DNA of 5,728 bases from a virus. Taxonomy: Duplodnaviria > Heunggongvirae > Uroviricota > Caudoviricetes. Below, piece by piece: positions 1 through 3,000 of this stretch. Where the stretch lies: positions 1 through 5,728 of the IMG/VR virus record IMGVR_UViG_2609459830_000005. The stretch is one strand, 5' to 3'. Position 1 is the first letter of the stretch. Each line of letters opens with the position of its first letter. The position numbers are program-made.

Positions 1-3000
1 TGCCTGACTGCGGCTCAAAGCTGGCCCCGTTATCCACGATGGCTTCTTTCTCCGGCACATGCTGCACTGCCGTGATGGCAAAGGTACCGTCCGTGTTTTC
101 CCGGATGGAAACACAGCGGAACAGGCGACGACGCAGTGACGGCAGGGAGAGTCCCCATACACCGTATGTCTCCACACCATCAGGCAGGGTGCTGACCTGT
201 ATCCGGTCCGGCGCGGGGTGTGCAGTGATGGCCACGCTCACCGGCTTACCGCTGCCGTTAATCAGGTTCACCGTGGCGGCACCGGTCTCCGGCAGGGTCA
301 CCTCACGGTCCAGTGTCAGGTTGCGCCCGTAGCGCAGTATGGCTTCCGGGTCTTCCACCAGTTCCGTGGAGGTCTGCCAGCCGTTCTGCGGGTCGGTGTA
401 ATTCACCTCCACCGCCGTGTGGCGGTCCTTCAGGGCGCTGAAGCTGTAGCGAAACCCCACGCCGTTATCATCCACCACCACATCGCTGTTGGTGTACGGC
501 CACACCACATCCGACTGGCGGTCCTGAACGAACGTCAGCGTCTGGCCGTTCCATACCGGCATACAGCGCATCGCCGAGCAGAAATCCCCCAGGACATCCC
601 AGACCTTACGCTGCTGTGACAGGTACGCATTGAAGGTCATCCGCGGCTCTGTGCCCCCGAAACCATCCGGGACCGTCTGGTCACAGTACTGCGCAATGGC
701 ATACAGCGCCCATTTGTCCACGTCCGCCGCCCCCAGACGTTTTCCCATGCCGTAGCGCGGGTGAGTCAGCATGTCCCACAGGCACCAGGCCGGGTTGTTG
801 CTGTATGCCGGTTTCAGGCTGCCGTCCCAGATGCCGCTGTACGTGCGTTTTTCCGGGTCATAGTTTGACGGTACCTGAATGATGCGACCGCGGATATGGT
901 AGTTCACCGTCATCTGCTGGCCACCAAACTGCTCCGCATCCACCTGCAGGCCCACAATCGCCGTATTAGGGTAGCACTGTTTCACATCGATGATTTCGGT
1001 GTATGACGACCAGAGCGTCTTATTCTGCAGCTGGTCCGAGGTGCTGTCCGCTGTCTCCCGGACCATCCGGATGTTAAAAGGACGGGGCGGCAGATTATCC
1101 AGAATCACCGACGCCAGAAACTGCGAGGTGGTCTTGCCGTTAATGGTGACATCCTTTTCCGTCACCCAGTTACCGTTACGCTCAAGCTGAATCAGCAGCC
1201 GGACAGAAGAGGGATTACGGTCACCCTTTGAGGTGGTCTCCACCAGTGACTGCACCCCGAAGGTAACCCGCAGGCGGTCAATGTTCGCGGACGTAATGGT
1301 GCGCGTCACCGGCTTTGCCTTCGTCACTTCCACGCCCAGTCCGGTTTCAGCTCCGGAGGACTCAAAGCCTTCCGGTGGTGTCTGCTCCTGCTCCCCGGCA
1401 CGCCAGACCGCCGTCACACCGTGTATCACGGGATTACCGTCCGTGTCCGTCAGCGGGGTTTTGTTCACCAGGATACTCTGCGGTCCCTTCAACGGGCCTT
1501 CTATCGGTCCCTCACCAATCGCATCAATCACACTCATCATCTGCGTGGATTTGAGATTATCCTTCGCCTCACGCGGTGTGTGCCCCTTGCCGCCCCCTTT
1601 ACCCACTCTGTCCCCCTCTCCTGTCTGATGTCTGAATCTGTTTATGCCAGAAAACAACAGGCACCCCGGAGGGTGCCTGTGTCATGACGGAATAAAATTT
1701 CTGAAACTCTTCACATTTCCGGCAATTGCCTGTAGCCGCAATAATGACGCTGCGTTACTTTTTTGATGCCTGAAAAATAACTCCATAACGTTAATCTTCA
1801 TCGTTCTCTCCCGCAGCTCCGCTAACTCTGCGGGATTTTTTTATTTTCATCCCCGCCCGATAACCACCACTTTCCCGTCTCCGCCCTCATCACGGGTGCT
1901 GATGTCCTGGGATATCCGTCGTGAACCAACCAGCATTTCACCATAAGGCACCGGCATAGGGTTACCCTGGGCAATCATGTTATCCAGCGACGAAAAGTAC
2001 GTGTTCTGTTTACCGTTATCCGTTGCCCTGTATTCCGGTGTTTTTGGCTTCGGGGCCAGCATCTGTGCCACACCACCCAGAATCATGCTGGCACCCAGTG
2101 AAAACAGCATCGTGGTGGCAGAAAAACCGCCGGCACTCAGGGCTGTACCCCATAACGCCATCGAGCCTCCGGCAGTGAAGAAAGAGCCCACGATGGCTGC
2201 CGCCCCCAGCACAATCCGCAGTCCGCCCTTTCCGGCTCCGGCCAGTCGCGGCACAATATGGATGACCGCCCCCTCACCCAGAGGTTCGTGAAGACGGGCG
2301 TACACCGCCTCCGGTGCCGTGTCCTCACCGCGAATACGTATCTGGTACCAGCCTTCGTTCATCTGACGGCGGAATCCCGGCACCTGTAACGACAGCGCCC
2401 GGATGGCTTCCGCTGCCGTGTTCACGTACAGGCTGAGGCGGCGGCCAAATCGTTGTAAATCCCCGTGAAGGCAGATGCGTGCCAGTGGCGGTGACGCCAG
2501 ACAGAATGCGTTCGTCGTTGCCATTTTTCGGAATACCTCTCCCGTTTACTCAGTTGTTCAGGCAGATGGTGAAGCAGTTCACCGTTGCCGCAGTAAATGG
2601 CGGCATGATTGGCCACCGATGCGCCAAAGCAGCACAGCAGGATATCGCCCGCCTGTGCAGAGGACAGGGGCACCCGGTAAAAGCCGGTGACCGCCATATT
2701 GTCCAGGTAAAGGTTCTGACCGTTGCGCCACCAGTCATCCTCACGCTCAAAATCCGGCATATCAATTCCCGCCAGATGGTAGGCATCCCGGAACAGCGTG
2801 TAACAGTCCGTCACCCCGTGCTCAAAGCGCCGTCCTGTCAGATGTGGCACACAGCGGAATTTATGAATGTCCCCCCGGCAGACCAGCCACCAGGACAGTG
2901 CACTTTTTATCTGCAGCCGCCGGTCGGCCTCGCTCAGCCAGGGCAGGCCACCGGGGTGGCTGTGGACCAGCGCCACAATCTCACCCTGCATTTTGGCCTG

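Follow-up and report, generated by a model that had tools for sequence, protein, structure and literature searches.

A small RNA gene of the EcOnc22-24/PasB family probably occupies the junction between tail genes I and J of a lambdoid prophage

Background

Two described sets of Hfq-dependent small RNAs (sRNAs) from prophages of pathogenic Escherichia coli are the closest known relatives of the element analysed here, which lies between tail genes I and J in the virus record IMGVR_UViG_2609459830_000005 (Caudoviricetes), within its positions 1 to 5,728; this whole stretch of 5,728 nucleotides is called the window below. The first set was found in enterohaemorrhagic E. coli (EHEC) O157 Sakai, where EcOnc22, EcOnc23 and EcOnc24 were listed as three homologous orphan Hfq-binding sites (Tree et al. 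2014, Mol Cell, PMC4104026). According to Table S2 of that work, EcOnc22 (Sp15, 2902714-2902774, plus strand) gives an RNA of about 85 nt on a northern blot and is destabilised in a Δhfq mutant, while EcOnc23 (Sp14, 2676643-2676704, plus) and EcOnc24 (Sp11, 2166694-2166753, plus) are orphan sites of Hfq crosslinking and analysis of cDNAs (CRAC). The publication gives peak coordinates in an older assembly, without sequence, ends or function (PMC4104026), and a 2021 review still gives the function of EcOnc22-24 as unknown.

The second relative is PasB of enteropathogenic E. coli (EPEC) E2348/69, an RNA of 83 nt on the minus strand of NC_011601.1 (1466343->1466261), for which the probe AATCCCGCAGTGATCGCGGAGCT was used (Pearl Mizrahi et al. 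2021, Sci Adv, PMC8550237, Table S6). Its base mean of 482-1082, as opposed to 5-15 for the flanking genes I and J, places it about 100-fold over the silent tail genes; its log2 fold change in a Δhfq mutant is -6.8 in Dulbecco's modified Eagle medium (DMEM) and -2.4 in lysogeny broth (LB); and 37 interactions with many core and accessory transcripts were recorded by RNA interaction by ligation and sequencing (RIL-seq) (PMC8550237). PasB levels are higher in static overnight cultures in LB than in exponential cultures in DMEM, and its 5' end is known from RNA-seq coverage only. Neither the PasB papers nor the 2021 review naming EcOnc22-24 draw a link between the two names.

AgvB and AsxR (Rfam RF02702 and RF02703) form a third point of comparison. 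They are short Hfq-dependent sRNAs carried by lambdoid prophages of EHEC as non-coding morons and, like the RNA described here, combine a conserved 3' part with a variable 5' part; unlike it, they are found downstream of PR', beside stx or other morons, and not in the tail operon. The possibility that the window RNA is AgvB or AsxR was ruled out by this location and by the lack of any Rfam match in the window.

We put at roughly 85% the probability that the I-J spacer of the window holds the already described Hfq-dependent sRNA known as EcOnc22-24 in EHEC and as PasB in EPEC. Its gene would lie on the plus strand, opposite the tail genes, with a promoter of its own that works in the lysogen; the RNA would act in trans, and a 39-codon open reading frame (ORF) on the other strand would be a by-product. 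The sRNA family is already known; the sRNA gene is unannotated in the records inspected.

Results and discussion

The I-J spacer and its counterparts in EHEC and EPEC

The window is a lambda-like tail module read on the minus strand, with, from high to low coordinates, a tape-measure/L fusion (4889-5635 and upstream), an antirepressor module, K, I, the spacer and J. The 5' part of J, the tail-tip/host-specificity gene, occupies 1-1606 (minus; GTG start at 1606-1604) and was assigned by position and by a 98.5% DNA match to J of VT1-Sakai. The tail assembly gene I occupies 1847-2524 (minus; Pfam Lambda_tail_I, E 3.9e-15; stop codon at 1847-1849). The spacer between them, 1607-1846, is 240 nt long and has a GC content of 0.46-0.48, compared to 0.53-0.69 in the flanks, which confirms the lower-GC segment of about 240 bp from which the original prediction had started. 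Its statement that I and J are essentially contiguous in lambda is roughly right: the lambda gap is 60 nt (I ends at 15444, J starts at 15505), and the window junction is about 180 nt longer.

The closest public matches to the window are prophages of EHEC and Shiga toxin-producing E. coli, and VT1-Sakai (Sp15) is 98.5% identical to it over 1560-1900. A 341-nt query around the spacer matched 96 phage records, mostly Shiga toxin (Stx)-converting phages, and 807 of 5426 complete E. coli genomes, which carry it a median of 3 times and at most 9 times each. The annotation under these matches was almost always 'tail assembly protein' and 'J' alone.

In the current Sakai sequence (NC_002695.2), the I-J spacers are found at 2902691-2902930 (Sp15), 2676622-2676861 (Sp14) and 2166672-2166911 (Sp11), with the tail genes on the minus strand. 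These three spacers are mutually identical and agree with the window at 239 of 240 positions; the exception is an A in Sakai where the window has G1754, 2 nt upstream of the -10 box described below. All three EcOnc peaks fall within the I-J spacers, antisense to the tail genes and at one shared relative position, that is, at the same locus and on the same strand relative to the tail genes as the window RNA.

Placing the peaks within the spacer depends on a coordinate shift between the older assembly and NC_002695.2. AsxR lies at about 1268629-1268679 in NC_002695.2, compared to 1268494-1268542 in the table, and AgvB1 at about 1941921-1941977, compared to 1941783-1941835, which gives an offset of about +135 to +142 nt. 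EcOnc59 fits the published rule that sites lie '>100 bp from coding regions' (PMC4104026) only with an offset of +107 to +150, and neither the EcOnc42/EcOnc21 homology nor EcOnc48 discriminated between offsets. Ordered by position, the offset relative to Table S2 is apparently absent at 1.18 Mb, 135-142 nt at 1.27 and 1.94 Mb, and 107-150 nt at 2.34 Mb. The landmarks bracket EcOnc24, and since all three peaks occupy the same place relative to their spacers, a single offset was taken to hold for them. With +140, the peaks map to about 1769-1830 of the window (plus strand), over the single-stranded body and the terminator, and they lie inside the match of a covariance model for the family (776-860 of locus L004, equal to 2676775-2676859). 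At face value, the Table S2 coordinates would put EcOnc22 over the hairpin next to J (about 1630-1690 of the window, plus strand), where there is no terminator on that strand; this placement was ruled out by the AsxR, AgvB1 and EcOnc59 calibration. Any re-use of Table S2 of PMC4104026 needs a correction for these offsets.

The PasB site is the I-J spacer of the EPEC prophage PP6, whose tail genes are read from the plus strand, with PasB antisense to them. In the alignment, the PasB 5' end corresponds to window position 1767 and its 3' end to 1842, the last U. The reverse complement of the PasB probe matches 1815-1837 except in the loop, so that the northern probe covers the terminator hairpin. 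PasB and the window RNA share the promoter box, the -10 box, the terminator stem, the core (AACUCC, AUCUUCAU), the slot and the orientation, but the 5' third and the terminator loop of PasB are unlike those of the window, and the window version is 7 nt shorter. Since the longest exact match between the two is only about 17 nt (by eye), the word-28 BLAST of bacterial genomes in a recent preprint on PasB (Zhu, Shabalina and Storz 2026) probably misses the window variant.

The features of the family that can be read from DNA, namely the antisense position between I and J, the sequence homology and the U-tailed terminator at the 3' end, are all present in the window. Hfq binding, Hfq-dependent stability and a discrete transcript of about 83-85 nt were shown for the near-identical Sakai loci and for PasB, and would by analogy hold for the window sequence. 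Together with the coordinate correction, the link between EcOnc22-24 and PasB lets the EHEC and EPEC data sets be combined.

Anatomy of the predicted sRNA gene

Conservation was assessed on two samples of spacers. The first was collected from IMG/VR with a conserved 21-mer (1683-1703) as search pattern and gave 120 loci, 62 of them unique; it is biased for that block. The second used an independent anchor at the J start region, and the loci were then pooled (160 loci, 85 unique cassettes).

The covariance model (R1) matched the window at 1760-1844 on the plus strand (85.3 bits, E 3.6e-13). From the PasB alignment, the sRNA gene would extend over 1767-1842 (plus), its 5' end moving to about 1752 if an upstream -10 box is used. 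A conserved promoter-upstream block at 1681-1718 (plus) holds an inverted repeat at 1697-1718 (ATTTCTGAAACTCTTCACATTT) resembling a CRP site, with the core TCTGA-N6-TCACA at 1700-1715. The most likely -10 box of the sRNA promoter is TACTTT (TAnnnT) at 1756-1761 (plus), 5-6 nt upstream of the PasB-homologous 5' end; its spacing is fixed, and in 81 of the 85 unique cassettes the distance from the start of TCTGA to TAnnnT is exactly 56 nt. A weak -35-like hexamer, TAGCCG at 1733-1738 (plus), may be paired with it at 17 bp, and the T at position 1 and the G at position 3 of this hexamer are kept across cassette types in the alignments. Less constant is a TATAAT-like hexamer 16 nt further upstream of the -10 box, AATAAT at 1740-1745 (plus): nAnnnT occurs there (box+40) in 73 of the 85 unique cassettes and has decayed in others (GTGCAT, AACCTT, AATAAC). 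As the main -10 box this hexamer was rejected, being less conserved than TAnnnT at 1756-1761 and a poorer fit to the PasB 5' end. It may be spacer sequence, or the -10 box of a possible second promoter with a start near 1752.

Within the RNA body, conservation is highest in a core at 1779-1801 (plus; AACTCC ... TTAATCTTCAT), which is unpaired or weakly paired in the predicted folds of all body types and is complementary to Shine-Dalgarno and start-codon-like sequence. This core is the probable seed; the PasB seed was independently proposed to lie just upstream of the terminator (Zhu, Shabalina and Storz 2026 preprint). The gene ends in a Rho-independent terminator at 1809-1842 (plus), with a perfect 8-bp stem (arms 1809-1816 and 1828-1835) and U7 at 1836-1842, 5 nt from the I stop codon. 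This terminator is the second of the two hairpins in the original prediction, which had correctly placed its T-tract on the opposite strand. The same prediction had offered a small RNA locus as one of its options, and an sRNA is indeed what we find, but its gene is on the plus strand, so that both the ORF and the tail genes lie opposite it, and the second hairpin is its terminator. Over 1400-2100, three terminator-like sites were found, compared to 0.6 expected from shuffles, and the two hairpins of the spacer are among them, on opposite strands.

We propose that one self-contained sRNA cassette was inserted in the lambdoid I-J junction, between a minus-strand hairpin and the I stop codon, and points against the tail operon. 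Its plus-strand parts would be the CRP-like box (1697-1718), the weak -35 hexamer, the -10 box (1756-1761), an RNA of about 76 nt (about 1767-1842) and the GC-rich terminator with U7. The lysogen would make the sRNA from this promoter of its own, and the RNA would act in trans by base pairing through the single-stranded core (AACUCC...UUAAUCUUCAU).

Several results weigh against this reading. All the expression evidence comes from the Sakai and EPEC relatives of the window sequence. A consensus promoter scan found no sigma-70 promoter on either strand, and a search of the window against Rfam 15 returned no matching family even at E<=1. Neither predicted length, 76 nt from the PasB-like start or about 91 nt if the upstream -10 box is used, is an exact fit to the northern estimate of about 85 nt in Sakai, which leaves the 5' end uncertain. 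The coordinate offset at 2.9 Mb rests on bracketing landmarks and not on the original assembly. Finally, covariation in the terminator is weak: in the covariance-model alignment (97% of cells paired), 5 of the 8 pairs never vary and one compensatory pair was found among 56 distinct sequences. This alignment was used because RNAalifold on a MAFFT alignment mis-registered the divergent terminators. Given the weak formal covariation, support for the structure rests on the contrast between loop and stem and on the existence of distinct stems that all pair, as described below.

The 39-codon reading frame

The original prediction centred on a 39-codon ORF with a good ribosome-binding site, possibly a mini-moron encoding a small protein. 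The ORF exists (1682-1801, minus), with the 39-aa peptide as quoted and GGGAGAG 4 nt upstream of its ATG. The ribosome-binding site and the ATG, however, mirror the core and the terminator stem of the sRNA: GGGAGAG (1806-1812) is in part the complement of the 5' arm of the terminator, and ATGAAGATTAA is the complement of the conserved UUAAUCUUCAU. The first 12 codons and the ribosome-binding site are antisense to the sRNA. We judge the frame non-coding; it would have arisen by chance, its initiation signals being the reflection of the sRNA core and terminator stem.

If the frame were a mini-moron, a 39-aa protein would be transcribed with or within the tail operon, and its message ended by the minus-strand terminator after its stop codon. 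The layout of the spacer lends itself to this, with an intact ORF, GGGAGAG at 4 nt from the ATG and a terminator-like hairpin 1 nt past the stop codon, and in phage 1720a-02 a 'hypothetical protein' is annotated at this very position. Its conservation argues otherwise. Among the 62 unique variants, reading from the homologous ATG gives the full 39 aa at only about a third of loci. At the others, a frameshift leads into an unrelated 31-aa peptide, the frame is shortened to 8-31 codons or runs on to 41 or 54, or the start codon is lost (ACG or AGA); in the EPEC copy the frame stops at codon 23, leaving 22 codons. The only part of the peptide common to the variants is MKIN, and the codons for it lie opposite the best conserved stretch of the sRNA. 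Copies with all 39 codons intact carry 10 polymorphisms, distributed 5/4/1 over codon positions 1/2/3, and 9 of the 10 are non-synonymous. The peptide has no Pfam match, and the tBLASTn search that had been suggested for it found at least 99% identity in 5 phage records only, the remaining matches being at about 50% identity with E values of 0.05-4. In tandem arrays (see below), moreover, the conserved block recurs with each sRNA cassette and the minus-strand terminator does not. According to the original prediction, a segment present in all relatives without conservation of the ORF would speak against a protein; the segment proved widespread, and the ORF is not conserved in it. The mini-moron thus appears very improbable.

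The overlap of the two strands might also point to a type I toxin-antitoxin pair, with the ORF as toxin and the antisense sRNA as antitoxin, and the sRNA (1767-1842) is indeed fully complementary to the translation-initiation region of the ORF (1799-1812). Against such a pair, the ORF is not conserved, no Pfam match was found (the PADLOC and NCBIfam libraries were not searched), and no hydrophobic transmembrane stretch is seen on reading the peptide sequence. In EPEC, where only 22 codons of the ORF are left, the sRNA is nonetheless conserved and expressed, and it has many trans partners in RIL-seq. We regard this reading as improbable in the extreme, and retain the trans-acting sRNA with a chance frame opposite it.

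A family of cassettes, single and in tandem

The element AATAAAAnyTCTGA-N6-TTCACATTT is invariant and precedes every sRNA. The half-sites of its box do not vary among the 160 loci, while the central N6 comes in six versions, and the same holds for the spacers anchored at the J start. Downstream of it, the RNA bodies fall into about 16 sequence types, which have in common AACUCC and (G)UUAAUCUUC(A/G)U, or GGUGACUAUUCGU in the most divergent type. For every type, the predicted fold shows a body with weak structure or none, then a strong terminator hairpin with its U-tail. The hairpin and T-run are present in 159 of the 160 loci, with freely variable loops and at least four different stems, all of which pair: mostly CCCGCAG/CTGCGGG, otherwise CCCACAG/CTGTGGG, CCCGCA/TGCGGG and several longer ones of the form CUCCCGU(n)AAUAU.../...AUAUUACGGGAG.

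Several matches to the covariance model, a few hundred bases apart, gave the first sign that cassettes can occur in arrays. At the junction of locus L034 (IMG/VR; about 606-1520 of the reverse complement), four cassettes follow each other, each with its own box, -10 box, distinct body and terminator, and multiple cassettes were also found in the IMG/VR loci L056, L060, L061, L075, L102, L108, L112 and L114. Among 55 unique J-anchored junctions, 40 had one box, 4 had two, 1 had three, 6 had four and 4 had none; spacers with one, two, three or four boxes measured about 240, about 424-478, 715 and about 910 nt, respectively. The window is of the single-cassette form. The four-cassette junction is covered to at least 80% in 67 of the 5426 complete E. 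coli genomes, E. coli 2012C-4431 and 89-3156 among them, and is unannotated in the records listed. Because the conserved block repeats with each cassette in the arrays, it belongs to the plus-strand cassette and not to the minus-strand ORF or hairpin.

These arrays suggest a broader view, to which we give slightly less than even odds: the I-J junction of lambdoid prophages of the EHEC/EPEC type may serve modular sRNA cassettes as a dedicated landing site that can expand, EcOnc22-24 and PasB being two of at least about 16 body types. If so, lysogens would carry a co-regulated battery of Hfq-dependent sRNAs with differing target specificities, possibly responsive to cyclic AMP (cAMP) and CRP. 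The shared upstream box and the tandem arrays lead to testable hypotheses on how prophage sRNAs are wired into host regulation. For annotation, about 15% of complete E. coli genomes contain this experimentally supported Hfq-dependent sRNA gene, many of them more than once, yet it has no Rfam match and is missing from the gene annotations inspected, which invites small-ORF mis-calls. As far as comparison of sequences can tell, what would be new relative to the literature on EcOnc22-24 and PasB is the membership of EcOnc22-24 in the PasB family, the shift of about 140 nt, the shared CRP-like box, the breadth of body types and the arrays of 2-4 cassettes; these additions would extend an already known kind of element.

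The position of the cassettes bears on how the sRNA acts. A mainly cis-acting antisense RNA, tuning expression or processing of I and J on the late tail mRNA during lytic growth, would account for the strict location between I and J in every locus found and for the unusually stable synteny of PasB noted in the preprint (Zhu, Shabalina and Storz 2026), and the sRNA is by its location perfectly complementary to the I-J intercistronic RNA. The complementary region, however, stops short of the J start by about 160 nt and merely abuts the I stop codon, so that it covers no ribosome-binding site. PasB is expressed while the tail genes are silent and has its 37 trans interactions on Hfq, and the presence of about 16 body types at one position suggests selection on trans targets. 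Cis action as the main mode is therefore unlikely, although cis and trans modes are not mutually exclusive, and pairing in trans is the mode we favour.

Other inserts were seen at or near this junction. In locus L197 (IMG/VR), an element resembling an insertion sequence, whose ORF begins MTKNTRFSPEVRQRAV..., directly follows the conserved box, in place of the sRNA promoter and body. The J N-terminus VGKGGGKGHTPR is common to the J-anchored loci. In L135 and four identical IMG/VR loci, J has the same N-terminus, and the spacer is an unrelated sequence of more than 260 nt with a lipoprotein-like small ORF opposite J (MKCKIIAAIAMLTAASCGYAAEQEV...); this insert at the same I-J junction suggests that the junction is an insertion hot spot. 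A scan of genome contigs with the sRNA terminator pattern returned two exact matches only, in a 460-nt contig of Parendozoicomonas haliclonae (L130) and a 3408-nt contig of Streptomyces flavalbus (L131). Both are most likely contaminating E. coli prophage DNA, and the scan is uninformative on host range.

The CRP-like box

The box agrees with the CRP core at 9 of 10 positions (TCTGA-N6-TCACA compared to TGTGA-N6-TCACA) and has flanking TTT; its right half extends to TCACATTT. In tandem arrays there is one copy per cassette. The centre of the box, 1707.5, lies at -59.5 from the PasB-derived 5' end at 1767, or at -60.5 to -61.5 if transcription starts at 1768-1769. Such a geometry would suit a class I promoter activated by cAMP-CRP, where the site is centred near -61.5, with the box here centred about 60 nt upstream of the start. 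The sRNA Spot 42 is repressed by cAMP-CRP, and it shows the opposite LB/DMEM pattern to PasB. The growth-condition pattern of PasB is consistent with activation by CRP, as circumstantial evidence and no proof.

Other points count against such control. One match of this quality in a 5.7-kb window, where 0.24 are expected, is not significant alone, and one half-site is always TCTGA rather than TGTGA. RpoS or another factor of stationary phase could just as well account for the higher level in stationary LB. We propose CRP control of the sRNA promoter, with class I geometry and a putative site, only tentatively, the odds being somewhat against it.

The minus-strand hairpin next to J

A terminator-like hairpin on the strand of the tail genes occupies 1649-1680 (minus). 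Its stem is perfect (arms 1657-1666 and 1671-1680, loop of 4 nt), with a U-tract at 1649-1656; the hairpin is followed by TGTTTTCTGG on the minus strand, and the scanner calls it terminator-like. The original prediction had seen this hairpin and U-tract after the ORF stop codon on the minus strand, but the stem is of 10 bp and not 9. The hairpin was found exactly once in all 51 box-containing junctions, always adjoining J, whatever the number of cassettes. Its U-tract is conserved, and some lineages show a double change from C-G to T-A. Because single-change intermediates occur in both directions, wobble pairs do not reveal which strand is used. Lambda has the same flanking genes and no antisense sRNA cassette, yet its 60-nt I-J spacer folds into a positional analogue, the GC-rich hairpin AAACCGCC-UGCG-GGCGGUUU with a U-rich tail, a short way ahead of the J ribosome-binding site; the terminator scan missed this lambda hairpin. 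The minus-strand hairpin is probably an ancestral feature of the junction and not part of the inserted cassette. In the lysogen, it may stop transcription that is not Q-modified (non-antiterminated) before J.

The hairpin could also be the 3' end of a second sRNA, or of an RNA from the gene I 3' untranslated region, on the tail strand, with the block 1681-1718 as its body. That block, directly upstream of the hairpin on the minus strand, is very conserved, the hairpin and U-tract resemble an Hfq-type 3' end, and the 75-nt fold has a z-score of -3.7. By reading of the sequence, the near-palindromic hexamer at 1740-1745 could even serve a minus-strand start near 1734, which would give an RNA of about 86 nt. 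Set against this, PasB and the three CRAC peaks all belong to the opposite strand, and the E2348C_1436-1437 intergenic region is not named among the RIL-seq interactions in the part of the table that the analysis covered. The block repeats with the plus-strand cassettes and the hairpin does not, which implies that block and hairpin are not one unit, and lambda has the hairpin without the block. A tail-strand sRNA is accordingly quite unlikely, and we keep to the plus-strand gene as the source of the RNA.

Neighbouring features of the prophage

Upstream of I on the minus strand, gene K (2422-3198, minus) encodes JAB and NlpC/P60 domains. A module resembling P22 immI is inserted between L and K, at 3214-4872. 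It comprises an antirepressor gene, ant (3214-4188, minus; P22_AR_N 1e-44, P22_AR_C 4e-29), an Arc-like gene of 57 aa (4207-4380, minus) and a divergent Arc/ribbon-helix-helix gene of 124 aa (4498-4872, plus). VT1-Sakai lacks the module, K directly following L there, and O55:H7 USDA5905 has it, with annotation. A hairpin, GAAGCCCGA...TCGGGCTTC followed by GCTATTTTTAT (4165-4209, plus), lies between ant and the Arc-like gene and is antisense to the leader of ant. It had no match in Rfam, and its site is presumably the one where phage P22 has the sar antisense RNA.

The ORF at 4889-5635 (minus) is a chimera, in which an N-terminal tape-measure region (positions 10-130 of Phage_HK97_TLTM) is joined to a C-terminal portion of tail protein L (positions 77-206 of Phage_tail_L). 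Related genomes span about 2.5 kb more at this site, with the rest of the tape measure, M and an intact L. Because the relatives carry these sequences, the prophage seems, from its sequence, to have undergone an in-frame deletion and to be tail-defective.

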